A DNA stretch of 32,004 nt from positions 6,272 through 38,275 of the forward strand of contig JASEHX010000002.1 in NCBI GenBank assembly GCA_030018645.1, given 5' to 3'. A program made the translations under genes and the position numbers. Below are positions 7,638 through 28,888 of the stretch, one piece after another. How positions within the stretch are numbered: position 1 is the stretch's first letter; each line of letters begins with the position of its first letter. This stretch comes from Candidatus Margulisiibacteriota bacterium (GTDB lineage Bacteria > Margulisbacteria > WOR-1 > O2-12-FULL-45-9). A model generated the notes under the pieces. It ran no database searches, was not told where the DNA came from, and saw only the letters and a list, made by a program, of their open reading frames with translations.

Positions 7638-8466
7638 ACTGGTTGAATGCGTTCCCAATTTTTCCGAAGGTGCGGATTTGGCGCTGGTGGATGAAATTGT
7701 CGCCGCGATCAAAACCGCCAAAGTCCTGAATGTCCACTCCGACCCCGACCATAACCGCTCGGTTGTAACTATTTTAGGTGAGCCCGATGCCGTAATGCTG
7801 GCGGCGTTTTCACTGACCGAGCGGGCGGTCCAGCTTTTAGATATTAATGAGCACGTTGGCGAACATCCTTTTATTGGAGTTATGGATGTTATCCCTTTTA
7901 TCCCGGTCAAAGAAATTTCTATCCCCGCAACAGTGGCCCTGGCAAAAGAATTGGCGGGTGAGCTTTGGAACAAATTGAAACTGCCGGTCTATTTTTACGG
8001 TGCGGCGGCGGTTAATCCCAATCGCAAAGAACTGCCCGCGGTTCGTCGCGGAAGCTATCCGCCGGATGTGGGGAGTGGTTTGCATCCCACGGCGGGGGCG
8101 GTGGCGGTAGGAGTAAGGGATTATCTGATTGCTTTTAATGTTAATCTAACTACCAATGATTTATCAATTGCCCAATCGATTGCCAAGAACATCCGCGAAA
8201 AGAGCGAGGGACTGCCGGGGGTGCGGGCGCTGGGAATTGACCTGAAAAGCCGCGGGATCACTCAAGTTTCGATCAATATCACCGACCACAAAACAACTTC
8301 GCTAAAACAAGTTTTTGATGAAGTAAAAAGATGGGCTAAAGAATATCAAGTAGGCATCATCGAATCCGAGCTGGTGGGGATGCTGCCGCAAGCGGCCGTT
8401 TTTCAAGGGATGAAAAATCTGTTAAAGTTAAGAAATTATTCAGATGAATATATATTATCAAACTAG
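7630..8466 (+). CDS. Glutamate formimidoyltransferase (FtcD N-terminal/transferase type)
   Basis: Hallmark N-terminus [14 protein letters not shown]; length (278 aa) fits stand-alone bacterial formimidoyltransferases. 8-nt overlap with the ftsH end. Confidence 0.8.
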   Translation: MSKLVECVPNFSEGADLALVDEIVAAIKTAKVLNVHSDPDHNRSVVTILGEPDAVMLAAFSLTERAVQLLDINEHVGEHPFIGVMDVIPFIPVKEISIPATVALAKELAGELWNKLKLPVYFYGAAAVNPNRKELPAVRRGSYPPDVGSGLHPTAGAVAVGVRDYLIAFNVNLTTNDLSIAQSIAKNIREKSEGLPGVRALGIDLKSRGITQVSINITDHKTTSLKQVFDEVKRWAKEYQVGIIESELVGMLPQAAVFQGMKNLLKLRNYSDEYILSN

Positions 8467-9797
8467 CTTCTTCGTCTGCTAGCGTGTTTTATTGCGTGTT
8501 CAAGCAAACACAGCTGATCTTCAGCCTGGGCTAATCCAACTGATAAGCGGATCATTCCACCGTCAATTCCCCAAAGTTCCTTTTCTGCTGGCGCTACGGT
8601 CGCATGGGTGCCAAGAAATGGCATTTCAATTAACGAACTTATTCCTCCCAAACTTACAGCATGTTTTATAACTCCCCCGCCATAGCGCGCAACGTAATTT
8701 ATGATTCTTTCGGCACGCGCTGCGCGGATAGCTTCTGTTTTTCCAGCCGGCGTAAAAGCAACCATGAATCCAGGGGCAAAAGTGTTATCCCACGAAGTAA
8801 GCAATCTTTGTGCAATTGAGAAATAAGAAGACGAAGCTAGCCCTGGGTAGTTAACTCTGCTGATATCAGGATTACCTGCAAGAGCAGCGGCAATAGTTTG
8901 GGCATTTCCAGTCATTCCACTAAAGCGATGATACAAGGTTGGCAAGCCCCGCGTAAGAAGAGTATGCACTTGTTCTGGCGCAGGAACTCCCCCAGTGTCC
9001 TTTCTAAACAAGAATAAACTTGGCCATTGGGCTTTAGGAACAATGGCAACCCCGGCCATTTCTTGGGTGAATCCGCCAAGGGCCTTGGTACAGGAATGGA
9101 CCACCATATCCGCACCATGGAGCAAAGGATTATCGCCAGCCGGGGTTTGGAAGGTATTATCAACTATGATCACAATATTTGGTTTTTTCTCTTTGGCCAA
9201 GCGAGAAATAGTTTCTAAATCGTAAACTCTAAGGTCAGGGTTGGTTACGGTTTCAAAATAGAGAACTTTGGTTTTGGGGTTCATTGCCCTAATGGCTTCT
9301 TCGGGATTGGATAAATCTAGGATATGGACATTATAGCCCCGTTTTTTTGCCAAGCCAGAGAAATAATTGTCAGTACAGCCATACAAAGGCTTTGAGGCAG
9401 CAACAATATCTCCTGGATCTAGCTGAAATTCAAGAACGGAATTAATGGCACGCATGCCGTCGCTAAATGCCAGCGCCCAATGTGTTGCTGGGGTAACCCC
9501 TTCTGCTATAACCATTGCCCAATTGAAGGCGACCTCAACTTCAGATCCAATTCTGCGATAGATATGACAAAGGCCGGCAACTTCATCCATGGTGGTTGGG
9601 TTAAATTCCAGGAGAGATTGAAATGCTCTGGCCATATCTTTAGCTGAAGCAGCTTTAACCGTGGTTGCAACTGGTATTGGCCAAACGGCATCAACATATC
9701 GTGCACCTTTGGGGATAGGCGGCGAAGCTAACATCGCCATAGCGGTACTGCGATGAACGTCATAAGGGGTCATCCTTCTTATAGTTGGTGTTAGCAT
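8463..9797 (-). CDS. Cys/Met-metabolism PLP-dependent enzyme family (gamma-lyase/sulfhydrylase-like, divergent)
   Basis: PLP-Lys context HSCTKALGG, AVSLGGISSLIEMP, C-terminal IRLSVGLAQAED. Start set to ATG 9797 (GGAG 8 nt upstream) rather than the 9884 ORF start. Confidence 0.75.
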   Translation of the reverse strand: MLTPTIRRMTPYDVHRSTAMAMLASPPIPKGARYVDAVWPIPVATTVKAASAKDMARAFQSLLEFNPTTMDEVAGLCHIYRRIGSEVEVAFNWAMVIAEGVTPATHWALAFSDGMRAINSVLEFQLDPGDIVAASKPLYGCTDNYFSGLAKKRGYNVHILDLSNPEEAIRAMNPKTKVLYFETVTNPDLRVYDLETISRLAKEKKPNIVIIVDNTFQTPAGDNPLLHGADMVVHSCTKALGGFTQEMAGVAIVPKAQWPSLFLFRKDTGGVPAPEQVHTLLTRGLPTLYHRFSGMTGNAQTIAAALAGNPDISRVNYPGLASSSYFSIAQRLLTSWDNTFAPGFMVAFTPAGKTEAIRAARAERIINYVARYGGGVIKHAVSLGGISSLIEMPFLGTHATVAPAEKELWGIDGGMIRLSVGLAQAEDQLCLLEHAIKHASRRRS

Positions 9798-9898
9798 GGT
9801 TCTTTTCTCCAGACATCTCACCTGGCTTCGCGAGCCTTTGTTTGCACTCAAGAATTCTTCGGCAGGGAGCGTAATAAATTTCACTCACTTTTATAAAT

Positions 9899-11413: not shown

Positions 11414-11917
11414 ATGAAATGCCCATTCTGCCAATACGAAGAAGATAAAGTGCTTGAATCCCGCGAAATAGAAGAAGGTGGGGCGGTTCGTCGGAGAAGG
11501 GAATGCCTTTCCTGCCGCGGCCGGTTTACCTCATACGAGCGGGTAGAAGAAAAGCCGCTGATGGTTATTAAACGCGATGGCCGCCGCGAAGCCTTTAACC
11601 GCGAAAAAATTTTAGGCGGGATCCACCGCGCCTGCGAAAAAAGGCCGGTGCCCACGGCCATGATCGAGCAAATGGTAGATGAAATTGAAAAAGAACTGCA
11701 CCGCAAAGAAGGACGCGAAGTGACCGCTGCTACCATTGGCCAAATGGTAATGGATAAACTGCAGGACACCGATAAAATTGCTTATATCCGTTTTGCTTCG
11801 GTGTACCGCAAGTTTGAAGATGTTTCCGACTTCATTAAAGAAGTAGCAGAAATCAGTCCCGCACTTTCTTATACAAATGAACCAGCTTTAAAAAGTGCGG
11901 GGAGGAGGGTAGAATAA
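11414..11917 (+). CDS. nrdR: Transcriptional repressor NrdR (zinc ribbon + ATP-cone)
   Basis: MKCPFCQ...CLSCRGRFTSYE zinc ribbon followed by an ATP-cone (VIKRDGRREAFNREKIL). Confidence 0.9.
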   Translation: MKCPFCQYEEDKVLESREIEEGGAVRRRRECLSCRGRFTSYERVEEKPLMVIKRDGRREAFNREKILGGIHRACEKRPVPTAMIEQMVDEIEKELHRKEGREVTAATIGQMVMDKLQDTDKIAYIRFASVYRKFEDVSDFIKEVAEISPALSYTNEPALKSAGRRVE

Positions 11918-14013
11918 TGGTTAAGGAATTATTGGTGGATGAAATGAAAAGTATAAACGATGCGACCGACATGGCCCTGTTTGTGCGGACATCTTCCGAA
12001 GATATTGTCGGCTGGAACCGCGAAAAAATTGTCGCCGCCCTGATCCGTGAAACCAGCGTTGACCCCGAAATTGCCGAAGTCATCGGCCAAGAAGTGGAAG
12101 AACAGATCATGCGCCTCAACCTGCGCACGGTTACCGCTCCCCTAGTGCGCGAACTGGTGGACGTAAAACTGCTGGAGCACGGCTTGGAAGAAGCCCGCCG
12201 CCGCCACACCCGCCTCGGCTTCCCGCTTTATGATGTTAAAGAAATTATCTTCAGCCAAAACAAGGAAAACGCCAATGTGCCGCACGGTCCCGAAGCTACC
12301 AATTTAACGCTGTCAGAAGGGATCAAAAAAGAATTCGCCCTCCTGCACGTTTTTACCCAGGATATTGCCGATGCCCACATGGTGGGCGACATCCATTTGC
12401 ACGATTTGGGTTTTATCGATCGGCCTTACTGCAGCGGACAGTCAGTAGAGTATGTCAAAAAGTTTGGGCTTGATCTTCCCAATGCTTTATCCAATGCCCG
12501 GCCGGCTAAACACCCTGAAGTTCTGTTGGCGCAAATGGTCAAGTTCTCGGCGGCACTGCAAGGCGTCTTTGCCGGAGCGATTGGCTGGGACGCGGTTAAT
12601 ATTTTCTTTGCTCCGTTTCTAGTTGGTTTATCGGATAAAGAAATTTATCAACTTGCCCAGATGATGATTTATGAATACAGCCAGCAAGCGGTGGCGCGCG
12701 GCGGCCAGGCCATTTTCTCGGATATTAATTTATACTGGGAAGTGCCCAAACATTTTGAAAATGTGCCGGCCATCGGCCCGGGCGGGGAGTATACCGGAAA
12801 AACTTATGCTGACTACATTAAAGAATCTCAAAAATTTGTCTGGGCGCTGTTTGACGTCTACCGCGAAGGGGACGGGGCGGGAAGACCCTTCTTTTTTCCC
12901 AAACCCTTGGTGCATATGACCGAAAAATTCTTCAAAACTCCGGGACATGAAGAATTCTTACTGCATATCTCTGAAGTGGCAACCGAAATGGGCAACACTT
13001 ATTATGTCTTTGACCGCGGCGATACCGCCAAAATTTCCGAGTGCTGCCGCCTGTCATTTAAACTGGAACAATCCGACCTTGACGATGCCAAGGAGCCCTG
13101 GCGGATGCGCTATTCCGCCCTCCAAAATGTTACTATCAACCTGCCGCGCATGGCTTACAAGGCCAAAGGATCGGACGATAAATTGTTTGAACTAATCGGC
13201 GCCAACTTGGAAATGGCCGCCCAAGCCCACATTCAGAAAAAAGCTTTTATTACCGAAATCTTAGCCAAAGGTCAGAGAGGGCCGCTTTCCATGCTGGCTA
13301 TGCAGCGCGACGGGCAATCGTATCTTAGGATGTTTAGGGTAAGTTATTTGATGGGCATTTTGGGCCTCAACGAACTGGTGCAGGCCCACAAGGGAGTGGA
13401 ACTGCATGCCAATGACGCGGCGCTAAAATTTGGCCTCAAAGTTATCTCGTTCATGAAGTTAAAATGCGAAGAATTATCGCGGCGCTATAACATGCACTTT
13501 GTCCTCGAACAAACCCCGGCCGAATCCACCGCCTATCGTTTTGCCAAGTTAGATATGGAACATTACCCCGAGCAAACCAGCCGCGTGGTAAAGGGACATA
13601 AAGAACAGAAGGAGCTGTATTACACCAATTCAACTTATTTTAATGTTTCCCATCCCATGAACCCGGCCGACCGGGTTAAAATGGAAGGCATTTTCCACCC
13701 CCTAATTGATGCTGGAGCGCTGACCCATGTTTGGCTGGGCGAATCAAAACCCAGCCCGGCTTCCATCGCCAATTTTGTGGTAAAAACTTTCCAGCATACC
13801 CAAAACGCGCAGATTGCTTTTTCGCCCGAGTTTACTTCCTGCAATGCCTGCGGTAAAATTGCCCGCGGCCTGCACGAAAAATGCTCCTATTGCCAATCGG
13901 AAAACATTGAAGGCATTACGCGCATTACCGGCTATTTTTCCAAGATTGCCGGCTGGAACAAAGGCAAAATCGGCGAACTAAAAGACCGTTATCGGGTGAG
14001 GGGAACAATATAG
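11917..14013 (+). CDS. nrdD: Anaerobic (class III) ribonucleoside-triphosphate reductase, paralog 1
   Basis: N-terminal ATP-cone, loop KISECCRLSF (C376-C377), C-terminal Zn site CNAC...CSYC and glycyl-radical motif RITGYFS. TAATG overlap with nrdR. Confidence 0.9.
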   Translation: MVKELLVDEMKSINDATDMALFVRTSSEDIVGWNREKIVAALIRETSVDPEIAEVIGQEVEEQIMRLNLRTVTAPLVRELVDVKLLEHGLEEARRRHTRLGFPLYDVKEIIFSQNKENANVPHGPEATNLTLSEGIKKEFALLHVFTQDIADAHMVGDIHLHDLGFIDRPYCSGQSVEYVKKFGLDLPNALSNARPAKHPEVLLAQMVKFSAALQGVFAGAIGWDAVNIFFAPFLVGLSDKEIYQLAQMMIYEYSQQAVARGGQAIFSDINLYWEVPKHFENVPAIGPGGEYTGKTYADYIKESQKFVWALFDVYREGDGAGRPFFFPKPLVHMTEKFFKTPGHEEFLLHISEVATEMGNTYYVFDRGDTAKISECCRLSFKLEQSDLDDAKEPWRMRYSALQNVTINLPRMAYKAKGSDDKLFELIGANLEMAAQAHIQKKAFITEILAKGQRGPLSMLAMQRDGQSYLRMFRVSYLMGILGLNELVQAHKGVELHANDAALKFGLKVISFMKLKCEELSRRYNMHFVLEQTPAESTAYRFAKLDMEHYPEQTSRVVKGHKEQKELYYTNSTYFNVSHPMNPADRVKMEGIFHPLIDAGALTHVWLGESKPSPASIANFVVKTFQHTQNAQIAFSPEFTSCNACGKIARGLHEKCSYCQSENIEGITRITGYFSKIAGWNKGKIGELKDRYRVRGTI

Positions 14014-16115
14014 TGAAGACGGTAACCAGTAACCAGTTGCCGGTAACCAGTATCCCGCCGGCGGAAGATACGACGGACCTTATGGTTTTCGTCCGCACGT
14101 CAACGGATGATATTGTAGCGTGGGATAAAGATAAAATTGTCGCGGCGCTAGTGAAGGAAACCGGGCTTAGCCCCGAGATTGGCTCAATCATTGCCATAGA
14201 AGTCGAAAAACAGCTCCGCGCTATGTCGGTTAAAAACATTACTTCTCCTCTCATCCGCGAACTGGTAGACGTTAAATTGCTGGAATACGGCCTGGAAGAT
14301 GCCCGCCGCCGCCACACCCGCCTGGGGGTCCCAGTCTATGATGTCAGAAAAATCCTTTTCCACAAGAATAAGGAAAACGCCAACACGCCGCACTCGCCGG
14401 AAGCCACCAACTTTACCTTGGCTGAAAATATCAAAAAAGAATTTGCTTTGCTCAATGTCTTTTCCCTGCCGGTGGCCGATGCCCATATGCGCGGCGATAT
14501 CCATTTGCATGATTTGGGTTTTGTTGACCGCCCCTATTGCAGCGGGCAATCAGTTGAATACCTTAAAAAATACGGCTTAGATCTGCCGGGCGCCAAGGGC
14601 TGCGCCAAACCGGCGGAAGATGCCGATGAACTCATTTCCCATATTGTAAAATTTTCGGTAGCTTTGCACGGTTTCTTCGCGGGAGCGATTGGCTGGGATG
14701 CGGTTAATATGTTTATGGCCCCTTATCTGGAAGGGTACGGTTCTGGCCACGTCAAAAAACTGGCTCACAAATTAATTTCCGAGTTTGCCACCGCGGCGGC
14801 GGCGCACGGCGGCCAGGGATTATTTTCTGATTTAAACCTATACTGGGAAATTCCTAAGCATTTTGAAAATGTCCCGGCCATTGGGCGGGGAGGGGTTTAT
14901 ACCGGTAAAGCTTATGCCGATTACATTAATGAATCCCAGCTTTTTGCCAAAGCCATGTTTGAGGTCTACAAAGAAGGGGATGGCGTGGGCAGGCCGTTCT
15001 TTTTCCCAAAACCTTTGGTGCACATGACGGAAAGGTTCTTCAATACCGCCGGCCACGAAGAATTCTTAAATCTTATCTCGGCCGTGGCGGCGGAAATGGG
15101 CAACACCTATTTTGTCTTTGACCGAGGAGAAACCGCCAAGATCTCCGAATGCTGCCGTTTGTCTTTTAAGCTCGATTATTCGGATTTGCAGGATGCCAAA
15201 GAGCCCTGGCGCATGCGCTACTCGGCCATCCAAAATGTTACGCTCAATTTACCGCGCGCTGCCTACCTGGCCCAAAGAAGCGACGAAAAATTATTTAAGA
15301 CCTTAGAGGAAATGCTAAACATTGCCGCCCGCGCGCACCGCGAGAAGAGAAAGTTTATTGAAGACCTGTTAAACGAAGGTCCCGATGGCCCGCTTTCGCT
15401 CTTAGCCACCGAGCGGGAGGGGGATTGCTATTTGCGCCTGCATCGCGTAACCCACCTGATTGGCGTGTTGGGCCTTAACGAGCTGGTGGAGTTTCATATG
15501 GGAAAACAGCTGCACGAAGCGCAGGATGCCCTGCGCTTTGGCCTGAAGGTCATTTCTTTTCTGAAATTAAAATGCGAAGAGCTGTCAGAAAAATACGACC
15601 TGCATTTTGTCCTGGAACAAACCCCGGCCGAATCCACTGCTTACCGTTTTGCCAAACTAGATATGGAGCATTTTCCCCAGCCAGCCCAGCAAGTGATCAA
15701 AGGCGATTTGGTTTCCGGCGAAATTTATTACACCAATTCGACTTACTTTAATGTGGGCTATGCCGTAAACCCGATTGATCGCGTCCAATTAGAAGGCCTG
15801 TTCCACCCGCTGATCGATGCCGGGGCGCTGACCCATGTTTGGCTGGGCGAATCAAAACCCGATCCCGCTTCCATTGCCAATTTTGTGATCAAAACTTTTA
15901 AAAATACCCAAAACAGCCAAATTGCTTTTTCGCCCGAGTTTACCGCCTGCCAAAACTGCGGGAAAACCGCCCGCGGACTGCACGATCAATGTCCATATTG
16001 TTCATCAGAAAAGATCGAAGGGATCACCCGTATTACCGGCTACTTTTCCCGGATCCCGGGCTGGAATAAAGGTAAAATCGGCGAATTAAAAAGCCGCTTT
16101 CGAAGTGAATTATAA
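14013..16115 (+). CDS. nrdD: Anaerobic (class III) ribonucleoside-triphosphate reductase, paralog 2
   Basis: Collinear with paralog 1 over the full length, roughly two-thirds identical by eye. Same ATP-cone, ECCRLSF (C380-C381), CQNC...CPYC and RITGYFS. GTG start overlaps the paralog-1 stop (TAGTG). Confidence 0.9.
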   Translation: MKTVTSNQLPVTSIPPAEDTTDLMVFVRTSTDDIVAWDKDKIVAALVKETGLSPEIGSIIAIEVEKQLRAMSVKNITSPLIRELVDVKLLEYGLEDARRRHTRLGVPVYDVRKILFHKNKENANTPHSPEATNFTLAENIKKEFALLNVFSLPVADAHMRGDIHLHDLGFVDRPYCSGQSVEYLKKYGLDLPGAKGCAKPAEDADELISHIVKFSVALHGFFAGAIGWDAVNMFMAPYLEGYGSGHVKKLAHKLISEFATAAAAHGGQGLFSDLNLYWEIPKHFENVPAIGRGGVYTGKAYADYINESQLFAKAMFEVYKEGDGVGRPFFFPKPLVHMTERFFNTAGHEEFLNLISAVAAEMGNTYFVFDRGETAKISECCRLSFKLDYSDLQDAKEPWRMRYSAIQNVTLNLPRAAYLAQRSDEKLFKTLEEMLNIAARAHREKRKFIEDLLNEGPDGPLSLLATEREGDCYLRLHRVTHLIGVLGLNELVEFHMGKQLHEAQDALRFGLKVISFLKLKCEELSEKYDLHFVLEQTPAESTAYRFAKLDMEHFPQPAQQVIKGDLVSGEIYYTNSTYFNVGYAVNPIDRVQLEGLFHPLIDAGALTHVWLGESKPDPASIANFVIKTFKNTQNSQIAFSPEFTACQNCGKTARGLHDQCPYCSSEKIEGITRITGYFSRIPGWNKGKIGELKSRFRSEL

Positions 16116-17920: not shown

Positions 17921-18843
17921 TAGAAAAGCTTTTGGTTGTTTTCTTTAATGGCTTTAGCCGAAACCTGCAGGGCGGTTTGCTCTTCAGATGAGAGCGGGAT
18001 TTCCATAATTTCCTCCACCCCGTTTTTTCCTAATTTAGCCGGCAGGCCAATATATAAATCATTTAAGCCGTATTGTCCCGTAACTAAGACCGAGGACAGG
18101 ATGCTTTCTTTTTTATCCTGTAAAATAGCTTCGGCCATGCGGGCGGCGGCGGCCGAAGGAGCATAATAGGCCGAGCCGGTTTTAAGTAAATTAACGATTT
18201 CCGCCCCGCCATTGGCAGTCCGTTGGACAATAGCATCAATTTTCTCGGGCGGCAAGAGTTGGGTGATAGGTTTGCCCGCAACGATGGTCTGACTGGGCAC
18301 CGGGACCATCAGGTCGCCATGGGTGCCCAAAACAGTGGCTTTAACCTCGGCCATGGGAACGTTTAATTCTAGGGCAATGAAGGATGCCATCCGTCCGGCA
18401 TCCAACAGCGGTGCCATGCCCATGACCCGCTGTGCGGGGAAACCAGAAATTTTCCAAGCCAAGTACGTCATTGCGTCCAAAGGGTTGGTAACGATAATTA
18501 AAACAGCCAGAGGAGAATACTTTTTAATGTTTTCCACAATGCCTTTGACGATGGCGGCATTTTTGTGAAGAAGGTCATCGCGGCTCATGCCGGGCTTGCG
18601 GGCTAAACCAGCGGTAATGACGACAATCTCTGAATCCTTCGTATCCGCGTAATCATTGGTTCCAACCACCCGGCTATTGTAGCCGCAAATCGGCCCAGCT
18701 TGGGTTATATCCAGCGCCTTGCCCTGCGGAATACCTTCGATAATATCCAATAAAACAACGTCTGCCAGGTTTTTTTCCGCCAGCCGGCGGGCGGTTTCCG
18801 CCCCCACGTTTCCCGCTCCAATGACGGTAACTTTTCTTTTCAT
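17920..18843 (-). CDS. mdh: Malate dehydrogenase (LDH-like, type 3)
   Basis: VIGAGNVG Rossmann motif. [13 protein letters not shown] carries Arg at the substrate-discriminating position (MDH rather than LDH). Catalytic His in GTHGD. Confidence 0.85.
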
Positions 18844-18883
18844 ACTTATAGCTTAACAAAATCTAGCCGTAGATTCAAACTTA

Positions 18884-18892
18884 TGCTAAAAT
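18884..18892 (+). promoter_or_regulatory. Extended -10 (TGcTAAAAT) 6 nt upstream of the DUF1858-like start; candidate leaderless transcript
   Basis: TAAAAT at 18887-18892, ATG at 18899, no SD between them. Confidence 0.3.
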
Positions 18893-18898
18893 AACCGT

Positions 18899-19102
18899 AT
18901 GCATCCTATCACCAAAGATATGACCATTGCGGAAGCGCTGAAGTTAAAGCCCGCCATTGCCCAGGTGCTAATGGCAAAAGGTATGCATTGTTTGGGCTGT
19001 GTGGTAGCACAAGGAGAAACTATTGAGCAGGCGGCCGAAGTGCATGGGTTGGCGGCTGATGAGTTGCTGGCTGAATTAAATGCTGAATTAAATAAGGAGT
19101 GA
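18899..19102 (+). CDS. DUF1858-like small redox-disulfide protein (hybrid-cluster-protein-associated type)
   Basis: 67 aa. ITKDMTIAEALKLKP...GMHCLGC...ETIEQAAEVHG matches the DUF1858 pattern as I remember it. Confidence 0.6.
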   Translation: MHPITKDMTIAEALKLKPAIAQVLMAKGMHCLGCVVAQGETIEQAAEVHGLAADELLAELNAELNKE

Positions 19103-19105
19103 TAG

Positions 19106-19339
19106 ATGGCAATAGTTAAAGTATATTCAACCCCCGCCTGTGTCTATTGTGTGATGGCTAAAAAATTCCTAGCGGAGAACAATATCCCTTTTGAGGAAAT
19201 TGATGTTTCCCTTAGCCAATCGGCGGCGCAGGAAATGATCAACAAATCAGGCCAGATGGGCGTGCCGGTAATTGACATTGATGGTAAAATATTTGTGGGG
19301 TTTGATCGGGCGGGCATCAAAAAAGCCCTGGGGTTATAA
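19106..19339 (+). CDS. Glutaredoxin-like protein (NrdH/YruB type), 77 aa
   Basis: VKVYSTPACVYCVMAKKFL CxxC motif, GVPVIDIDGKIFVGFD C-terminal motif. Confidence 0.75.
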   Translation: MAIVKVYSTPACVYCVMAKKFLAENNIPFEEIDVSLSQSAAQEMINKSGQMGVPVIDIDGKIFVGFDRAGIKKALGL

Positions 19340-19355
19340 AAGAGGAGACAATTTC

Positions 19356-19532
19356 ATGACCATTTCAGTTGATCAAGCGTTATGCTCGGGCTGCGGCATT
19401 TGCATTGACCTTTGCCCGGAAATCTTCACTTGGGGGGCGGATGGGAAAGCGCAAGCGGTAAAAGATGTTTGCGAAATCCACAACCCCGAAGAAGTGGCTG
19501 ACCAATGTCCCATGGACGCGATTGATATTTAA
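19356..19532 (+). CDS. Single-cluster [4Fe-4S] ferredoxin (Thermotoga/Pyrococcus type), 58 aa
   Basis: CSGCGIC...CP cluster ligands plus two extra Cys placed like the disulfide pair of that family. Start set to ATG 19356 (GAGGAG upstream); the longer track ORF overlaps the glutaredoxin gene. Confidence 0.8.
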   Translation: MTISVDQALCSGCGICIDLCPEIFTWGADGKAQAVKDVCEIHNPEEVADQCPMDAIDI

Positions 19533-19547
19533 GAAGGGAGAATAAGC

Positions 19548-19733
19548 ATGGCAGATAATAAAAAAGCAGTAGTTGATCCCAATATTTGCACCGGCTGCGG
19601 AATTTGTGTGGATGTTTGCCCCAGCCAGGCGATTGAATTAGTTGATGGATTGGCAAAGGTTAACTCCGACAAATGCAATGGCGATGTGACTTGTGTTGAT
19701 GCCTGCCCCGTGCAGGCCATAGCTATGCAGTAG
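19548..19733 (+). CDS. Two-cluster ferredoxin with a non-canonical second motif, 61 aa
   Basis: First motif CTGCGICVDVCP is canonical. Second motif CNGDVTCVDACP has Asp where the second Cys is expected (CxxDxxCxxxCP). Confidence 0.85.
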   Translation: MADNKKAVVDPNICTGCGICVDVCPSQAIELVDGLAKVNSDKCNGDVTCVDACPVQAIAMQ

Positions 19734-19764
19734 GTTTGCCCAGCAGTAACAATAAAAGCGCGGC
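19723..19764. repeat. Direct repeat copy A: orphan duplicate of the pyrB 3' end
   Basis: 39/42 identical to 21017-21058. Its minus-strand translation AALLLLLLGKPTA* is identical to the real pyrB C-terminus. Confidence 0.9.
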
Positions 19765-19802
19765 TATCTGCGAGATGGGCAATGTTTATTGATACATGCC
19801 AC

Positions 19803-19831
19803 TTGACAATTATACTTCGTTATCCTATACT
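19803..19831 (+). promoter_or_regulatory. Near-consensus sigma70 promoter of the ATPase cassette
   Basis: TTGACA (19803-19808), 17-nt spacer, TATACT (19826-19831). Confidence 0.5.
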
Positions 19832-19835
19832 ACAT

Positions 19836-19851
19836 TATACTATATAGTATA
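19836..19851. promoter_or_regulatory. Perfect 16-bp palindrome TATACTATATAGTATA (candidate operator)
   Basis: The sequence is its own reverse complement and sits immediately downstream of the -10. It overlaps the first of two ATAGTATAAT direct repeats (19844-19853, 19859-19868). Confidence 0.45.
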
Positions 19852-19882
19852 ATGCCAAATAGTATAATATGGAGGCAAACCA

Positions 19883-21004
19883 GTGAAAAACCCTTTTAAA
19901 TACGGAAAAACAGTCGATGGGGCCTTTTTTGCAGACAGGGAAAAGGAATTTAAGGATATGGCATCCTATATCCGGTCCGGCCAAAATGTTTTTGTTTTTT
20001 CTAATCGCCGCTACGGAAAAACATCGTTAGTGAAAAAGGTGGTTGAATATTTAACTCGAAAACGGGAAATTATTGCGATTTATGTTGATCTGGAACAGGT
20101 AACTTCTTCCGCGCAGTTTATCCAGATTTACGGCGAGGCGATTGGCAAAGGCCTTTTTTCCTGGAAGGAGAAACTAGAAAAAATCGCCGCTTTTTTTAGC
20201 CGGATTGTCCCTGTTTTTGAAATAACCAAAGAAGGAGGCGTGCGAATAACCTTTGATTTTTCTAAAACCAAAGACAAAGTTGAATATGCCTTGAACGAAG
20301 TTTATGAACTGCCTCAGCAAATAGCTGTCAAATACAAGAAGCGAGTGGCGGTAGTTTTTGATGAATTTCAGGAGATTGAAAAATTAGGCGGAATTGAGTT
20401 TGAAAAGAAACTGAGATCTTTTATTCAGCATCATTCTGAGGTATGTTATATTTTTATGGGCAGCAAGACCCGTGTGTTGATCCAAATGTTTAATGATCCG
20501 CGCCGGGCTTTTTATAAATCAGCTGCGACATATCCTTTGGGGCCGGTCCCGGAAAGGGAAATGATAAGTTTTATTATTGAACGTTTTTCCTCGACAGGGA
20601 AAAAAATATCGAAAGAAATTGCCAAAGAGATCATCGACCAATCACGCAATATCCCTTATTACGTACAAATGTATAGCTGGCATATCTGGAACCTTGCTGT
20701 ATCGGAAGTTAAGCAATCTGACGGCGCAAAAGCTCTGCAGGAATTGTTAAACAGTCAGAATGAGCTATTCTTTAATTGGTATGACAGCATGAGCATGCAC
20801 CAAAGGGCGCTGCTGCGAGCTTTATCTCAAACCGATGAAATATTCTCGCAGGATGCCTTAATCAAGCACGATTTAGGGACGGCTTCATCGGTACAGGCTT
20901 CAGTTCGGAAATTATTATTAAAAGGATTGATCGTAAAAGAAGAAAAAAAATATAGGATTACCGATCCCTTTTTTGAAATTTGGCTCCGGCAGGATGAGCA
21001 ATAA
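19883..21004 (+). CDS. P-loop ATPase of the archaeal-ATPase (PF01637-like) type with C-terminal DUF234-like wHTH
   Basis: GTG start 7 nt after GGAGG. Conserved N-terminus NPFKYGKTVDGAFFADREKE, Walker A-like SNRRYGKTSL (first Gly replaced), Walker B VAVVFDEFQE, C-terminal KKYRITDPFFEIWL. Confidence 0.7.
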   Translation: MKNPFKYGKTVDGAFFADREKEFKDMASYIRSGQNVFVFSNRRYGKTSLVKKVVEYLTRKREIIAIYVDLEQVTSSAQFIQIYGEAIGKGLFSWKEKLEKIAAFFSRIVPVFEITKEGGVRITFDFSKTKDKVEYALNEVYELPQQIAVKYKKRVAVVFDEFQEIEKLGGIEFEKKLRSFIQHHSEVCYIFMGSKTRVLIQMFNDPRRAFYKSAATYPLGPVPEREMISFIIERFSSTGKKISKEIAKEIIDQSRNIPYYVQMYSWHIWNLAVSEVKQSDGAKALQELLNSQNELFFNWYDSMSMHQRALLRALSQTDEIFSQDALIKHDLGTASSVQASVRKLLLKGLIVKEEKKYRITDPFFEIWLRQDEQ

Positions 21005-21016
21005 AAAATTCTGATT

Positions 21017-21058
21017 CTATGCAGTAGGCTTGCCTAGCAGTAACAATAAAAGCGCAGC
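21017..21058. repeat. Direct repeat copy B: authentic 3' end of pyrB
   Basis: See copy A. This copy is contiguous with the pyrB body. Confidence 0.9.
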
Positions 21059-21955
21059 GCGTACGGCAACCCCATTGGTAACCTGTTCTAAAATTACATT
21101 ATAAGGACCGTCGGCCACTTCGGAAGTTATTTCTACCCCGCGATTAATGGGTCCCGGGTGCATGACAATTACATCTTTTTGGGCTTTCTTCAACCGATCA
21201 GAATTTAAGCCGTAAAGCTTGGCGTATTCTTCAATGGAGGGGAAAAGCCCTTTGTCCTGCCGCTCTTTTTGGATGCGCAGCATGTTGATGAAGTCGGCAG
21301 CGGGAATTTCAGCATCCAAGTTATAAGAAACCCTAACCCCCATTTCTTCGATGTCTTCGGGAATGAGGGTGGGCGGGCCGACCAAGACTACTTTGGCTCC
21401 CAATTTAGTAAGACCCCAAATATTGGAGCGGGCCACCCGCGAGTGGGCAATATCACCGACAATCAGGACTTTTTTGCCTTTCAAATTGCCTTTTTTTTCT
21501 TCCATGGTAAAAATGTCAAGCAAGCCCTGTGTTGGATGTTCATTGTACCCATCCCCGGCGTTAATGACCGATGCCTGCACATTTTTAGCCGCCAGATGCG
21601 GGGCGCCGCCCATGCTGTGGCGGATAATGATGCAGTCAAGCCCCATTACTTCCAGGTTTTTTACCGTGTCAATTAAATTCTCACCTTTAACCACGCTGGA
21701 AGAAGAAACCGCGACATTGGTCACATTGGCGGATAAAATTTTCGCCGCCGTGTTAAAAGAGGTTCGCGTGCGGGTGGAGGCCTCATAGAACAATGTTACA
21801 ATGTGTTTGCCCAGCAGGGTGGGGACCTTGGGGATGGGGCGGGCGGCCACTTCTTTCATGGAATGGGCCGTGCGTAAAATTAATTTTATTTCATCAACCG
21901 AGAGGTCTTTGAGCCCCAAGAGGTCTTTGCGGTGGAGACTTTTTGTGTTGTTCAT
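21017..21955 (-). CDS. pyrB: Aspartate carbamoyltransferase catalytic subunit
   Basis: Motifs EASTRTRTSF, NEHPTQGLLD, HPGPINRGVEI. Start set to ATG 21955 (MNNTKSLHRKDLLGLKDLS) rather than 22006. Confidence 0.92.
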   Translation of the reverse strand: MNNTKSLHRKDLLGLKDLSVDEIKLILRTAHSMKEVAARPIPKVPTLLGKHIVTLFYEASTRTRTSFNTAAKILSANVTNVAVSSSSVVKGENLIDTVKNLEVMGLDCIIIRHSMGGAPHLAAKNVQASVINAGDGYNEHPTQGLLDIFTMEEKKGNLKGKKVLIVGDIAHSRVARSNIWGLTKLGAKVVLVGPPTLIPEDIEEMGVRVSYNLDAEIPAADFINMLRIQKERQDKGLFPSIEEYAKLYGLNSDRLKKAQKDVIVMHPGPINRGVEITSEVADGPYNVILEQVTNGVAVRAALLLLLLGKPTA

Positions 21956-21968
21956 CCTGTAAAAGTTT

Positions 21969-21974
21969 ATTATA
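21969..21974 (-). promoter_or_regulatory. Candidate -10 (TATAAT on the minus strand) for pyrB
   Basis: attata on the + strand, 13 nt upstream of the pyrB ATG. No convincing -35 at 17 nt. Confidence 0.25.
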
Positions 21975-22036
21975 ACAGAAAACGGCCAAGAAAGATAGGG
22001 GTTCATATCCCTCCACCCGCCAAATAAATCGGAGCA

Positions 22037-22057
22037 CCCTCTCCCAGAGGGAGAGGG
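22037..22057 (-). terminator. GC-rich hairpin CCCTCTCCC-aga-GGGAGAGGG just after the queD stop
   Basis: Perfect 9-bp stem and 3-nt loop, 4 nt after the queD stop. On the minus strand it is followed by UGCUCCGAUUUAUUU, which is only partly U-rich. Confidence 0.5.
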
Positions 22058-22060
22058 TCA

Positions 22061-22417
22061 TTATGGTTTATAAGTTGCGGAAGTTGAGGGAGATTCCCAA
22101 ACGGTAACACTATCAAGCAAGGGGATTTCGGGCTTTAGTTGCTCAAAAATAATCCGTGCTATGTTCTCACAGGATGGATTGATTTCCTTAAATTGCGGCA
22201 GGTCGTTGAGATTTTGGTGGTCAAATTGGCCGATGACCGCGTTCAAGCTAGCTTTAACTTCTCTAAAATCAACCAGCAAGCCAAGGTGGTTCAGCTTATC
22301 TCCCGCCAGACGGACTTCGACTTTCCAAGTATGCCCGTGCAAATTTTCACATGGTCCCTGGTAACCGCGCAGAGCATGAGCGGAGCTAAAAGAAGATTCA
22401 ATAGTTAGGGTATACAT
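22061..22417 (-). CDS. queD: 6-carboxy-5,6,7,8-tetrahydropterin synthase (PTPS family)
   Basis: FSSAHALRGYQGPCENLHGHTWKVEV Zn/His motif; 118 aa; 13-nt overlap with the gltX end. Confidence 0.85.
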   Translation of the reverse strand: MYTLTIESSFSSAHALRGYQGPCENLHGHTWKVEVRLAGDKLNHLGLLVDFREVKASLNAVIGQFDHQNLNDLPQFKEINPSCENIARIIFEQLKPEIPLLDSVTVWESPSTSATYKP

Positions 22418-23844
22418 TGTTTTATGGCCTTTCCAATTCTTTGCACTACCTTTTCTTTCCCCAATATTTCAACTACATCATACATAGGGGGAGATTGAAG
22501 TGTTCCAGTCAAAGCCAAGCGGGCAGGATGGATTATTTCTCCCAGCTTTTTACCCAGTTCTTGTGCTAAACCTTTAAAGACCGCTTCAATTGAACTATGG
22601 TCAAATGGCTCAAGTTCGGCTAGCTGCTTTTTGAGGATAGCTAATAATTGGATATTTTCCGCCGATTTAAAATATTTTTCAATGGCGGCTTGGTCAAACT
22701 CAAATTCATCCGTAAAAAAATAACGGGAAAGGGGGACAATATCGGGAATTAGGGTTAATCGATCATGAAAAGCCAAAACCACTTTCCTAATGTAATTAAT
22801 ATCATGGTTTCCATAAGCATCAATCAATAATGGTTCGCAAAGATCAACTAAACGTTCCGGCAAAATGGACCGGATATACTTCCCATTCAGCCAATTTAAT
22901 TTATCAAAATCAAAGACGGCGGGATTTTTGGAAATTCCCTTGAGGGTAAATTTATCAATTAGCTCCTGCCGCGAAAAAATTTCCTGGTCGCCATGTCCCC
23001 AGCCCAGCTTGACAATATAATTGAGGACGGCTTCGGGCAAATAACCCATTGCCTGGTAATCTATCACCGAAGTTGCGCCATGGCGTTTGGATAAGCGCGT
23101 TTTATCTTTACCCAAAATCATGGGGAGATGAGCAAATTTGGGAATTTTCCAGCCAAAGGCTTGAAAAAGTAAAATTTGCCGGGGAGTGTTGGAAAGATGG
23201 TCGTCGCCGCGGATAACATGCGATATCTCCATCAAGTGATCATCAATTGCACAGGCAAAATTATAGGTGGGAAAACCATCAGATTTTAAAATCACAAAAT
23301 CATCCAGCACCTCGTTTTGAAAAACCACATCTCCCCGGATAAGGTCGTGGACAATGGTTTCGCCGATAGGCGGCAGCATGAAGCGGATGACTTTAGAAAT
23401 ACCGCCTTCCAACTTGCTTTTTATTTCCGCTTCGGATAATTTGCGGCAGGAATTATCATATTTGGGGGCTTCCTTGCGGGCGGCGGCATCTTTCCGCTTT
23501 TTCTCCAGCTCCTCCGGCGTACAAAAACAAGAATAGGCCTTGCCTTCTTTAATTAATTGCTCGGCAAATTCTTTATATATATGTAGCCGTTCGGTTTGAT
23601 AATATGGGCCATAGTTCCCGCCGATATTGGGGCCTTCGTCCCAATCCAGCCCCAGCCATTCCATTCCCCTTAAAATACTGTGAGTAGAATCAACCGTTGA
23701 GCGTTCCCGATCGGTATCCTCAATTCTTAAAATAAATACCCCGCCCTGGCTGCGGGCATATAGCCAGCTATACAAAGCAGTCCTTGCTCCTCCGATGTGG
23801 AGGGCGCCGGTGGGGCTGGGAGCGAAACGCACGCGAATTGGCAT
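22405..23844 (-). CDS. gltX: Glutamyl-tRNA synthetase
   Basis: RFAPSPTGALHIGGARTALY (HIGH), RLSKRHG (KMSKS), class I GluRS length. Confidence 0.92.
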   Translation of the reverse strand: MPIRVRFAPSPTGALHIGGARTALYSWLYARSQGGVFILRIEDTDRERSTVDSTHSILRGMEWLGLDWDEGPNIGGNYGPYYQTERLHIYKEFAEQLIKEGKAYSCFCTPEELEKKRKDAAARKEAPKYDNSCRKLSEAEIKSKLEGGISKVIRFMLPPIGETIVHDLIRGDVVFQNEVLDDFVILKSDGFPTYNFACAIDDHLMEISHVIRGDDHLSNTPRQILLFQAFGWKIPKFAHLPMILGKDKTRLSKRHGATSVIDYQAMGYLPEAVLNYIVKLGWGHGDQEIFSRQELIDKFTLKGISKNPAVFDFDKLNWLNGKYIRSILPERLVDLCEPLLIDAYGNHDINYIRKVVLAFHDRLTLIPDIVPLSRYFFTDEFEFDQAAIEKYFKSAENIQLLAILKKQLAELEPFDHSSIEAVFKGLAQELGKKLGEIIHPARLALTGTLQSPPMYDVVEILGKEKVVQRIGKAIKQCIP

Positions 23845-23859
23845 TGGTAATCTTCCTTT

Positions 23860-25215
23860 TTATTCTGCCAGCAAAAAGAGCCAGGCCGGGACAAAAATGA
23901 TTTGCTTATTATCGATCGTTTTTTTCTGGAAAAGGTCTTTAGTAATAACCATTCCCTTTGGCAGTTTCATCTTATTGAGAAAGAAAAGAATGCTGGATAA
24001 GTCCTCTTTCTTGATCTGATTTTTATATTTTACTTCTAGGGGAGAGACAGCTTGTCCTTTCAGGATAAAATCGATTTCTCCATTGTTTCTCCAATAATAT
24101 ACCCCCTGGCCAGCTGCTTGGGAACATTTTATGCCAACCATGTTCTCAATAATAAAGCCAATATTTTCTTCTTGGATCTTATAATCTTTTAAGATCGCAT
24201 TCCGCAAACCCTGATCAACCGCTAAAAATTTCTTTTTAGCTTTCAATTGTTCTTTTATTTTGGCAAATTTGAGGATGTCAATTAAGAGATAACTGCTTTT
24301 TAGGAATTCAATATAATTTACCAGAGTGGCCCGATCGAGGCCGACGGCCTCATTAATTGTTTCATAGGCCAAAATTTGGCTTTGATGGGAAATAATGAAA
24401 GTTAATATGAGCTCCAGCATGCGGGGAGATTTTATTCCATATAATTTGGCAATATCTTCGTAGATGGATTTTTTGGGAACATCGCTGATCAAACTATTAA
24501 ACCAGGCTTCAATGCCAAACGGCTTGGCCTGGAACCATTCTGGAAATCCGCCAACCAGGGCATATTCTTTAAATAAGGGCATGATCTTTTTCCCCATTGT
24601 GCTGATCTCAATGGGAGTAAGTTTCAATAAATCTTCTAAGGAGGAATAGCTTTGCCGCTGTCCTGACAATGCCAGGAATTCATTAAGATCTAATGGAAAG
24701 AGCGATAATTCAAAGGTCCGCCCGCGCAAGAATTGATTGGCTTCATTCTGCAGGGTAATACTGGCTGATCCGGATAAAATAAATTTTATCGATGGGTTCC
24801 GATCATAGAAGGTCTTGATCCATTTATGCCAGCCAGGAAAAGATTGGACCTCGTCCAGGAAAATATACCTTTTTTTACCGCTGACAATGTTTTCAGCATG
24901 GTAATCAATTAGATCTTTGATCAGATTATCGCTGTAAGCGGCCAAAGAAGGGTCATCTAAAGAATAATACAAGATCGAAGCAGGTTCTATGCCGGACGAC
25001 AATAGGGAGGCAATCATTTGTTTGAGCAAGACGCTCTTGCCGGTGCGGCGGGGGCCAAGCAGGAGCATGATGCGGCGCCCGGGCAGTGCGTCGGTTAATT
25101 TGCTAAAAAGTGCTCTCTTGAAGGGATACAGCTCTTCTTCAATAACCGCTTTTGTCAACCACCACTCGTTCACCTTTTCTAACTCGCGGCTAAATTCAAT
25201 CAAATTGGCGATCAT
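23860..25215 (-). CDS. AAA+ ATPase with C-terminal DUF4143-like domain (AAA_14 type), function unknown
   Basis: Walker A LLLGPRRTGKS, Walker B RYIFLDEVQ. The C-terminal half resembles the DUF4143 region common to this family. GGAGG SD upstream; stop 15 nt before the gltX start. Confidence 0.7.
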   Translation of the reverse strand: MIANLIEFSRELEKVNEWWLTKAVIEEELYPFKRALFSKLTDALPGRRIMLLLGPRRTGKSVLLKQMIASLLSSGIEPASILYYSLDDPSLAAYSDNLIKDLIDYHAENIVSGKKRYIFLDEVQSFPGWHKWIKTFYDRNPSIKFILSGSASITLQNEANQFLRGRTFELSLFPLDLNEFLALSGQRQSYSSLEDLLKLTPIEISTMGKKIMPLFKEYALVGGFPEWFQAKPFGIEAWFNSLISDVPKKSIYEDIAKLYGIKSPRMLELILTFIISHQSQILAYETINEAVGLDRATLVNYIEFLKSSYLLIDILKFAKIKEQLKAKKKFLAVDQGLRNAILKDYKIQEENIGFIIENMVGIKCSQAAGQGVYYWRNNGEIDFILKGQAVSPLEVKYKNQIKKEDLSSILFFLNKMKLPKGMVITKDLFQKKTIDNKQIIFVPAWLFLLAE

Positions 25216-25290: not shown

Positions 25291-25296
25291 GTCAAT

Positions 25297-25325
25297 TTGT
25301 AATCTTCTTTCCTGAAAGATATAAT
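25297..25325 (+). promoter_or_regulatory. Candidate promoter of the barrel::SppA gene; possibly leaderless
   Basis: TTGTAA (25297-25302), 17 nt, TATAAT (25320-25325). ATG at 25334 is 8 nt downstream with no SD. Confidence 0.4.
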
Positions 25326-28000: not shown

Positions 28001-28888
28001 TTACCCCACCTTCTCCGCCGCCCTTAGTTTAGCACTTTTTGCTCTTGGATTTAAATTTACTTCTTCTTCCGTTGCAGTTACGGGCTTTTTGGTTAGAATC
28101 TTTAACTGGCCGGCATGCTTGAAGGTTTGTTTGACGATCCTATCTTCCAGCGAATGGTAGGAGAGGACAACAATTCGTCCGCTGGGAGACAGCAAATCAA
28201 TCGCATCCTCTAAGGCAGTATGTAAACACTCTAGCTCCTGATTGACGGCAATACGCAGGGATTGAAAAATTCGTGATAGCGTTTCCCGCTTGCGCCAACC
28301 GGGCGTCGCTTTTTCTACAATAGCTTTCAGCTCAAAGGTGGTACGGATAGGATGGCTTTCCCGATAGCTGACGATCGCTTTGGCAATGCGGCGGAAAAAA
28401 CGCTCTTCGCCAAACTCAAAAAATATTTTGGCTAGATCGTCTGGATCATAATGGTTAATTATGGCGGCCGCATCCAGTTTTTGTCTTTTGTCCATGCGCA
28501 TGTCAAGCGGACCGTCTTTTTGCAGGGAAAACCCGCGCGACGGCTCGTCAATTTGCCAGGAAGAAACACCAAGGTCGAATAAAATACCGTTAATTGGTTC
28601 TTTAATATGCTTTTTAAGGTTTCGAAAATTGTCCTGGATGTAAGTAATATTATTGAATTGGGCAAGATTTCTTTTAGCAGCTTCGATAGCATCAACATCT
28701 TGATCAAAAGCAAATACCCTCTCCCCCTGGGAGAGGGGGGAAGGTTTAGGGTTAGCGGGTGAGGGTTGGAGTAAAGCCTTTACATGTCCCCCCCCACCCA
28801 GGGTGCAATCGACGAACGTGCCGCCGCGCTGGGGAGCCAGAAAAGCAGCAACCTCATTCAGCATTACCGGGACATGTTGAAAATTCAT
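28001..28888 (-). CDS. rsmH: 16S rRNA (cytosine1402-N4)-methyltransferase RsmH/MraW
   Basis: HVPVML, VDCTLGGGGH, DLGVSSWQID, GPLDMRMD, SYHSLEDRIVK, NPRAKSAKLR motifs. Confidence 0.9.
   Translation of the reverse strand: MNFQHVPVMLNEVAAFLAPQRGGTFVDCTLGGGGHVKALLQPSPANPKPSPLSQGERVFAFDQDVDAIEAAKRNLAQFNNITYIQDNFRNLKKHIKEPINGILFDLGVSSWQIDEPSRGFSLQKDGPLDMRMDKRQKLDAAAIINHYDPDDLAKIFFEFGEERFFRRIAKAIVSYRESHPIRTTFELKAIVEKATPGWRKRETLSRIFQSLRIAVNQELECLHTALEDAIDLLSPSGRIVVLSYHSLEDRIVKQTFKHAGQLKILTKKPVTATEEEVNLNPRAKSAKLRAAEKVG
28717..28765. repeat. GC-rich palindromic (REP/BoxC-like) element lying in frame inside rsmH
   Basis: CCCTCTCCC-cct-GGGAGAGGG (28717-28737) has the same 9-bp stem as 22037-22057. It is followed by GGGaaggtttagggttagcgggtgaggg. 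It encodes PANPKPSPLSQGE within a segment about 9 aa longer than E. coli RsmH (aligned from memory). Confidence 0.6.

Follow-up and report, generated by a model that had tools for sequence, protein, structure and literature searches.

How did a single ATPase gene come to lie exactly where two convergent genes once overlapped, bracketed by two copies of the last 42 nucleotides (nt) of one of them? The question is raised by the 32,004-nt stretch of Candidatus Margulisiibacteriota DNA analysed here (the window), in which an insert that holds one ATPase gene separates a ferredoxin gene from pyrB, the gene for the catalytic subunit of aspartate carbamoyltransferase. Coordinates are positions in this 32-kb window throughout, and L001, L120 and the like are labels of the contigs with which it was compared. 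Our answer, to which we give a probability of roughly 0.5, is that positions 19765-21016 are a horizontally acquired, non-autonomous one-gene islet, joined to the chromosome at the pyrB stop codon by host recombination with incoming DNA that carried a pyrB tail. The features on which the argument turns are as follows (aa, amino acids; ORF, open reading frame):

19548-19733, plus strand: fdx2, a 2x[4Fe-4S] ferredoxin of 61 aa (ORF list; Pfam Fer4 families; pyrB-adjacent orthologues in L001, L002, L009 and L014).
19723-19764, no strand assigned: repeat copy A, a displaced pyrB tail without a pyrB body, which gives the ferredoxin its 3' end (repeat search and translation; aligns to L001 2549-2588).
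19765-19802, plus strand: 38-nt spacer from copy A to the promoter, not conserved in related cassettes (upstream alignment of cassettes).
19803-19831, plus strand: predicted sigma-70-type promoter, TTGACA-17 nt-TATACT, 11 of 12 consensus positions (motif scan; -35 box kept in L003, L005 and L006).
19810-19869, plus strand: operator-like repeat region, with perfect TTATACTA sites at 19835-19842 (plus), 19845-19852 (minus) and 19860-19867 (minus) and degenerate copies upstream.
19871-19875, plus strand: GGAGG ribosome-binding site.
19883-21004, plus strand: AAA+ ATPase with a C-terminal winged helix, 373 aa, GTG start, of the PF01637 ATPase_2 / COG1672 type (Pfam, AlphaFold2, Foldseek and profile search).
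21005-21016, no strand assigned: 12-nt spacer from the ATPase stop to copy B (repeat borders).
21017-21058, no strand assigned: repeat copy B, the functional pyrB 3' end of 13 codons plus stop (repeat search, translation and homologue alignment).
21017-21955, minus strand: pyrB, 312 aa from the start shared by its homologues (MNNTKSL...) (Pfam OTCace_N and OTCace; homologues 80-95% identical in Margulisbacteria/WOR-1/Saganbacteria; aligned with the pyrB genes of L001 and L002).

Copies A and B form a direct repeat in which 39 of 42 bases are identical (blastn-short matches the flanks with E = 1.5e-13), and, the tandem nrdD paralogues excepted, the 32 kb contain no other long repeat with two copies. 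The minus-strand translation of each copy is AALLLLLLGKPTA*; the repeat comprises precisely 14 codons, the last 13 of pyrB and the stop, from an Ala-Ala pair onward, and the similarity breaks off sharply at both borders. The three mismatches, at repeat positions 13, 19 and 40, all lie in third codon positions and are synonymous (Lys AAA/AAG, Leu CTG/CTA and Ala GCC/GCT), and the longest perfect run between the copies is 20 nt. Copy A supplies the final codons and stop of the ferredoxin (AMQ*, its last 11 nt, 19723-19733), and in the absence of the insert the ferredoxin gene and pyrB would converge with an overlap of 11 nt. An earlier preliminary description of this DNA had reported the repeats, with their coordinates, identity, common peptide and synonymous mismatches, as well as the ferredoxin end and the overlap, and we reproduced all of these; its remark that the overlap resembles those of other convergent pairs in the window holds for a single further pair, 7630-8466 and 8463-9884, with an overlap of 4 nt. 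It had also made the synonymous character of the changes a key argument, and this proved weak: the probability that three of three substitutions are synonymous under simple duplication and drift is 0.11-0.18 (changes were enumerated as allowed if synonymous in copy B, and as free in copy A save at the bases constrained by the ferredoxin), so that the pattern is mildly informative. The 42 nt have no dyad symmetry and no structure (folding z = +1.5 and +1.7). An integron attC site was considered and rejected, since the repeat does not fold and there is no integrase in the window. An RNA gene as the insertion target was ruled out too: the window has neither a tRNA nor a tmRNA gene, and 18500-22500 gave no Rfam match.

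The same site is found empty in relatives. More than 100 pyrB relatives are known at 80-95% aa identity, all in Margulisbacteria (WOR-1, Saganbacteria), and in the closest of them, contig L001 (95% aa and 85.6% nt identity), the ferredoxin gene and pyrB are convergent and overlap directly. L001 aligns to window positions 19764-19503 and 21998-21019, with 40 nt of L001 common to both alignments; these 40 nt are the repeat, and the occupied and empty forms therefore differ by the insert plus one repeat copy. Ferredoxin also adjoins pyrB, with no ATPase gene, in L002 (92%) and in L009 and L014 (~85%), and at the 9 other Margulisbacteria loci the gene after pyrB is rnhB-like or codes for a transporter like those of the major facilitator superfamily (MFS) (names taken from translated ORFs, not from Pfam). 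Insertion at the pyrB 3' site was thus seen at 0 of 13 related loci, and the notion that this gene end is an insertion hotspot was rejected on that count. The insert itself (1252 nt, with one real ORF) has a GC content of 0.391, the lowest of any 1252-nt stretch in the window; all other stretches of that length have a mean of 0.476, a standard deviation of 0.024 and a minimum of 0.402. Its composition is foreign, and both parsimony and composition place the gain of the cassette in the lineage of the window. The AT-richness that had been judged by eye is thereby borne out by computation, and the predicted empty site and related cassettes at other loci (71-74% aa identity, below) have both come to light. 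With empty sites among the relatives, cassettes elsewhere and a composition unlike that of the flanks, everything that was to have spoken against insertion is contradicted by the data, and the insertion reading itself stands on the exact empty site of L001 and the foreign GC content.

Where the second pyrB tail came from is partly constrained by states that the two copies share. Compared with L001, both have a TAG stop where L001 has TCG-TAA, as well as three synonymous sites in common, and the ..LLLLLLGKPTA tail occurs only in the window and L001 among 120 pyrB homologues; any donor of a second copy would therefore be a near relative. Sliding comparisons of the window's pyrB with those of L001 and L002 show no step in identity near the 3' end, a test for mosaicism that has no power because L001 and L002 are too diverged (third-position identity between the window and L001 is 66%).

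The cassette has relatives elsewhere. The nearest, at 71-74% aa identity of the ATPase, are on short contigs at other loci, next to parA-like, nadD-like and other genes (named from the printed sequence rather than by an annotation tool), and their nt homology to the window extends from the -35 box to the stop codon. Outside promoter and gene these cassettes have no conserved arms or ends in common, and no pyrB-like sequence was found at their loci. L003 showed no flanking repeat in a pairwise screen, and contigs L004, L005 and L006 are too short for judgement on this point. ATPase relatives at 50-58% identity occur in Omnitrophota, Ratteibacteria, Elusimicrobiota and Krumholzibacteriota, and on this account we regard the distribution as patchy and horizontal. 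Another ATPase of the set, protein P0007, has the same downstream gene (PMT_2) in 7 contigs from different samples, and its upstream flanks are unrelated from ~130 nt before the start codon (L172 560-860 against L173 1-245), which is suggestive, not decisive; in L173, L174 and L175 the ATPase gene lies at an equal offset, 240 nt from the upstream end of the contig.

Within the insert each of the elements that the preliminary description had listed (a strong promoter, a palindromic operator and one ATPase gene) was found. Perfect TTATACTA sites number 4 in the window against 0.41 expected window-wide, and 3 of them are in the operator region, whose palindrome has z = -2.4. The arrangement ATTATACTA..CATTATACTA..TAGTATAAC ahead of the ribosome-binding site is kept among the nearest cassettes despite saturated synonymous sites, and in more distant subfamilies this position is taken by other palindromes (TTATGCAC/GTGCATAA for L131, TTACGC/GCGTAA for L143). 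The palindrome overlaps the stretch between promoter and ribosome-binding site in the fashion of an autoregulatory operator, and this putative operator would be the binding site of the cassette's own winged helix. No recombinase or transposase domain was detected by Pfam in any ORF of at least 110 aa in the window, in agreement with the earlier statement that there is no integrase or transposase, and the ends of the insert have no inverted repeats.

The protein matches PF01637 with 45.4 bits (gathering cut-off 33.2), and of its Walker residues G45-K46-T47-S48 and D160-E161, compared in 30 homologues, T47 is conserved in at least 90% and the rest are invariant. An AlphaFold2 model with a mean confidence score (pLDDT) of 88.9 has an AAA+ core, a lid and, at residues 305-371, a winged helix. 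Its best Foldseek matches are the structures 2qen and 2fna (E = 3e-15 and 9e-15; template-modelling (TM) scores 0.67-0.71), followed by Orc1/Cdc6 proteins from archaea (E ~1e-12, TM ~0.56, identity 12-13%) and from eukaryotes, and a profile search of the PDB also returned 2fna (E = 5e-12). Pfam reports no DUF234, no other nuclease or recombinase domain and no Cdc6-family match in this protein. DUF234 is a module of the PD-(D/E)XK type fused to many members of the PF01637 family (PMC3424549); family membership does not require it. A homing nuclease was rejected on this ground, the protein having no DUF234/PD-(D/E)XK module and the model consisting of AAA+ core, lid and winged helix only. Against its nearest relatives (71-74% aa identity) the gene shows nonsynonymous divergence (dN) of ~0.2 with synonymous divergence (dS) saturated; it is intact and under purifying selection and for these reasons not a relic, one of the two options raised earlier for the cassette. 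We suggest, with low confidence, that the protein is a DNA-binding nucleotide switch, possibly related to defence. Matches to defence annotations are weak (PADLOC mad8, E = 2.5e-6; NCBIfam DS8, far under its cut-off), too weak for assignment to a named anti-phage system, which was rejected. A viral or plasmid origin was likewise rejected, given that homologues are few and all distant in IMG/VR (5), GenBank phages (2) and plasmids (24 of 72,556 records, all of them larger replicons of ~20-420 kb); no small plasmid in that set has an ATPase homologue as its only replication gene. The literature on PF01637, DUF234 and COG1672 yielded nothing on function or mobility beyond the PD-(D/E)XK survey (PMC3424549).

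Flanking repeats are not confined to the window. When the 500 nt before and the 300 nt after the gene were compared at 73 loci with ATPase homologues, 9 of them had a direct repeat between the two flanks that lay far above a reversed-sequence control; of 394 real genes of similar size, 4 had one (Fisher p = 1.5e-5). The real-gene control was run because random placements (3 of 1184 with flanking repeats) were judged to be biased towards coding sequence. The repeats at ATPase loci are 26 to 94 nt long, and five of the nine (L143, L147, L149, L153 and L158) are multicopy genomic repeats. A few of these loci have further repeat structure: at L143 (3686-7577) the ATPase gene is flanked by directly oriented copies of the 24-nt motif GGGTCGGATCTTGAATCTTGAA; the motif turns up again, in inverted orientation, at the ends of direct repeats of 95 nt (5824-5918 and 7483-7577, 93% identical) between which lies an unrelated gene for a 394-aa coiled-coil protein, and two neighbouring genes thus have a repeat-gene-repeat layout. 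At L147 a ~100-nt repeat (1-108, 1521-1614 and 1743-1850) and at L153 a 53-nt repeat (694-746, 2537-2589 and 2626-2678) is present in three copies around the ATPase homologue, one upstream and two downstream.

When 70 loci were searched at the protein level for displaced gene tails, only the window and L120 (Ratteibacteria) were returned, all other matches being multicopy or low-complexity. The L120 ATPase is ~36% identical to that of the window, and its cassette lies between two diverged copies of the 3' end of the neighbouring gene: the attached tail belongs to a cgeB-like glycosyltransferase that ends ..HRIKKMLTVIGKKIFESA / ..VIQKHTYLHRIKKMLTVIGKKIFESA, and the displaced tail, ..HRLKKILEIISPDQCLRENI / ..VIQKHTYLHRLKKILEIISPDQCLRENI, lies past the ATPase cassette and overlaps the start codon of the next gene (as we read that start). 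The two tails have a 31-nt core in common with two synonymous mismatches, and beyond it they differ by synonymous and conservative changes (Leu CTT/TTA among them), both fitting the C-terminal consensus of the family; they are two diverged alleles and not a decayed target duplication. A relative of this glycosyltransferase at 86% identity has no ATPase gene after it, and every contig that carries a 98%-identical one has the cassette.

Capture by recombination is the simplest account of both the window and L120. The islet, consisting of promoter, autoregulatory operator and Orc1/Cdc6-like AAA+/winged-helix ATPase gene, would have entered precisely at the stop codon of pyrB, at the spot where this gene and the ferredoxin gene overlapped tail to tail, on DNA that brought its own last 42 nt of pyrB from a very close relative or a previous host. 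Two routes could have led there: a single crossover between the chromosome and a circle carrying the cassette and one pyrB tail (Campbell-type integration), or a homologous anchor in pyrB combined with an illegitimate join 42 nt before the resident pyrB end, as in homology-facilitated illegitimate recombination, also called C-terminal displacement. By either route one tail would stay on pyrB (copy B) and the displaced tail would complete the ferredoxin (copy A), and the events that survive would be only those that left both genes intact. We infer how the recombination proceeded, that one of the tails came from a donor and that the winged helix is autoregulatory; nothing shows that the segment can move by itself. 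In favour of two alleles are the end of the repeat at the stop codon, its start at a codon boundary, the synonymous nature of all its differences, the single change in the 31 unconstrained bases of copy A, and the derived states that both copies have in common relative to L001, which we count for two alleles over a duplication in situ. Several points weigh against capture by recombination. The databases searched yielded no donor arrangement (a pyrB-cassette junction with a different far flank) and no second copy of the window's cassette above 74% identity; the identity of pyrB to L001 shows no step near the 3' end, L001 being too distant for this to have power; the 42-nt patch has three mismatches, and its perfect run of 20 nt is at the lower limit for a RecA-dependent crossover; the synonymous-only pattern weighs weakly against duplication in situ; and the origin of the first pyrB-cassette junction is left unexplained.

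The preliminary description had favoured a different mechanism, in which the two repeats would be the attL and attR of an integrative element with site specificity; the attP of this element would have brought a surrogate 3' end of pyrB, and its integrase would have been lost or act in trans. The insert would then be a remnant like the cis-mobilizable elements (CIMEs), which are defined by the retention of attL and attR and the loss of the genes for integration and transfer (PMC5704250). Repeats of 42 nt at a gene 3' end, a restored gene end, a clean empty site and foreign composition are the classic footprint of such an event, and the L001-like states, in copy A at repeat positions 13 and 19 and in copy B at 40, would follow from one crossover between 19 and 40, although 4 of the 8 possible patterns would fit as well. 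A dedicated site-specific system is argued against, however, by the lack of a recombinase in the 32 kb (an integrase may be encoded elsewhere in the genome), of inverted termini and of structure in the repeat (which also has no dyad symmetry, although core sites can be cryptic), and by a site that has not been reused at the 13 related loci. Relatives of the cassette, moreover, occupy unrelated loci that have neither pyrB-like sequence nor conserved arms, and an insert made up of just promoter and gene, with 38 and 12 nt to spare, is unlike the decay of a larger island. The attL/attR mechanism is thus unproven and on balance disfavoured, and we consider it unlikely.

Somewhat more doubtful is a duplication of the target in situ, that is, one illegitimate or transposition-like insertion that copied 42 nt of the target, after which the copies drifted apart. 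One event suffices here and no donor with the same junction is needed; the derived states common to both copies relative to L001 fit, as does the enrichment of direct repeats around this ATPase family, and the three synonymous differences are, by the probability given above, not improbable under drift. Against this, there is no transposase and there are no terminal inverted repeats or conserved ends, and a target duplication of 42 bp is far longer than those of any bacterial transposase known to us. A repeat border exactly at the pyrB stop would be rare for random staggered cuts, and by our own estimate, if copy B gained two synonymous changes, the free 31 nt of copy A should show more than one. 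The analogue at L120, furthermore, consists clearly of two diverged alleles.

A broader proposal, for which the enrichment of flanking repeats leaves some room, would make the 42-nt repeat the footprint of a general process and not a one-off accident: PF01637/COG1672 Orc1-like cassettes would be widespread, unrecognised minimal selfish elements of 1.3-1.8 kb, each with promoter, operator and gene, that pass from genome to genome across many candidate phyla and settle at gene ends with duplication or regeneration of the 3' end, possibly helped by the cassette's own DNA-binding AAA+ protein. We hold this to be very improbable; a minimal mobile element is unlikely on present evidence because the repeats are heterogeneous and absent at most loci and there is no catalytic domain. 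A related form, in which the Orc1/Cdc6-like ATPase and the repeats upstream of it are self-mobilising or self-replicating (an integrated mini-replicon, for example, or an integrating element of a new kind) and target and regenerate gene 3' ends, seems to us about as improbable. It could draw on the compact promoter-palindrome-gene unit, which recurs across phyla with subfamily-specific palindromes, on a fold that after two uncharacterised archaeal ATPases is nearest to origin-binding initiators, on the excess of flanking repeats over both controls and on two independent duplications of gene ends, in the window and in L120. Yet the protein has no nuclease or recombinase domain, 64 of the 73 loci have no flanking repeat and most of the repeats found are multicopy, no ends are conserved, homologues on plasmids and in phages or viruses are distant only, and the palindrome is placed, between promoter and ribosome-binding site, like an autoregulatory operator. 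An assembly artefact, in which a separate molecule with a pyrB tail was threaded into the chromosome path, is barely credible: the window probably belongs to a metagenome contig, and de Bruijn assemblers can be misled by repeats of such size, but both junctions give intact genes, and the copies, with three differences and at most 20 consecutive identical bases, would for that reason not collapse at usual k-mer sizes.

The locus is a clean case of a gene gained inside a tail-to-tail overlap without harm to either neighbour, with the occupied and empty alleles both known. The event itself is a small variation on a known kind, and it matters chiefly for what it hints about the biology of a large uncharacterised ATPase family: orphan "archaeal-type" ATPases of PF01637, which abound in archaea and in candidate bacterial phyla, have been without a known function ever since the first archaeal genomes. 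In the present data they act as self-contained, autoregulated, horizontally moving one-gene units that are often bracketed by repeats, twice lie between duplicated gene ends and, in the window, have a second solitary ATPase family (AAA_14-DUF4143) nearby, all of which points to a selfish or defence-type role.

That second ATPase gene (AAA_14 + DUF4143, 451 aa, 23860-25215, minus strand) is beside gltX, 2.8 kb from the first; its GC content of 0.407 is the second-lowest among window genes, and it is bracketed by an imperfect 16-nt repeat (14 of 16; 23843-23858 and 25295-25310) of a sort that arises by chance here. A different gene of the AAA_14-DUF4143 type (23% aa identity) is present in L001, elsewhere in this neighbourhood and immediately ahead of the PTPS gene, and L002 has no PTPS gene between gltX and pyrB. 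Around the related pyrB loci, a ~440-aa transporter-like gene separates the first ferredoxin from the second (or from pyrB) in L009 (6175-7503), L013 (1377-2708) and L015 (5993-7315) and is absent from the window and L002, and in L017 a solitary 339-aa ORF (6737-7756, plus strand) separates rnhB-like and lepB-like genes (named from translations) that are adjacent in L007. GC-rich palindromes of the form CCCTCTCCC..GGGAGAGGG are found in the window at 22035-22059, in the PTPS-pyrB spacer, and at 28714-28739, inside the rsmH ORF, and similar GC-rich hairpins adjoin the ATPase cassettes of L006 and L153. Elsewhere in the window, two tandem NrdD (anaerobic ribonucleotide reductase) paralogues, 75-79% identical in nt, follow directly after nrdR (11917-14013 and 14013-16115, plus strand), and a 1660-aa ORF (16-4998, plus strand) has no Pfam match at E <= 1e-5.

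Among known systems, the protein is most like SSO1545 (2fna) and PABY2304 (2qen), uncharacterised archaeal AAA+ ATPases that are its best matches in sequence and fold and have the same core, lid and winged helix; it differs in being bacterial, from a candidate phylum, at 16-20% identity, and in not having the DUF234 that is common in the family. With archaeal Orc1/Cdc6 it has in common the union of AAA+ domain and winged helix and the position of the gene after an AT-rich region with inverted repeats, but identity is 12-13%, there is no Cdc6 match in Pfam, the repeats are placed as an operator would be, and there is no evidence of replication. Like integron gene cassettes, the related units have a single gene, are ~1 kb long and occur in variable contexts; unlike them, the window's unit has a repeat that is an unstructured target sequence, a promoter of its own, no intI and no array in the window. 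The resemblance to CIMEs and integrase-less islands (PMC5704250) is in the direct repeats that enclose foreign DNA at a conserved gene's 3' end, the restored gene end and the want of an integrase inside; however, the window shows no site specificity, cognate integrase or remnants of a larger element, related cassettes are elsewhere, and an insert of 1.25 kb with one gene is far smaller than those described.

The closest parallel is with the scars of C-terminal displacement, or homology-facilitated illegitimate recombination, described at rhs loci and in the effector-immunity modules of the Vibrio type VI secretion system (T6SS) (PMC5361080). There, incoming DNA anchored by homology puts a new 3' part on a gene and the old part is displaced downstream, with no need for a recombinase of the element's own, and the same layout is seen here, with attached and displaced pyrB 3' ends and foreign DNA between them, and likewise in L120; for the window, the recombination route is one that we infer. 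The displaced piece differs from those of rhs and T6SS loci in being only 42 nt long and coding for the same peptide, with the function of pyrB unchanged, and the cargo is a single regulatory-type ATPase and not a toxin-immunity pair. Unlike the displaced tails at those loci, the window's tail would have been retained because it completes the convergent, overlapping ferredoxin gene.

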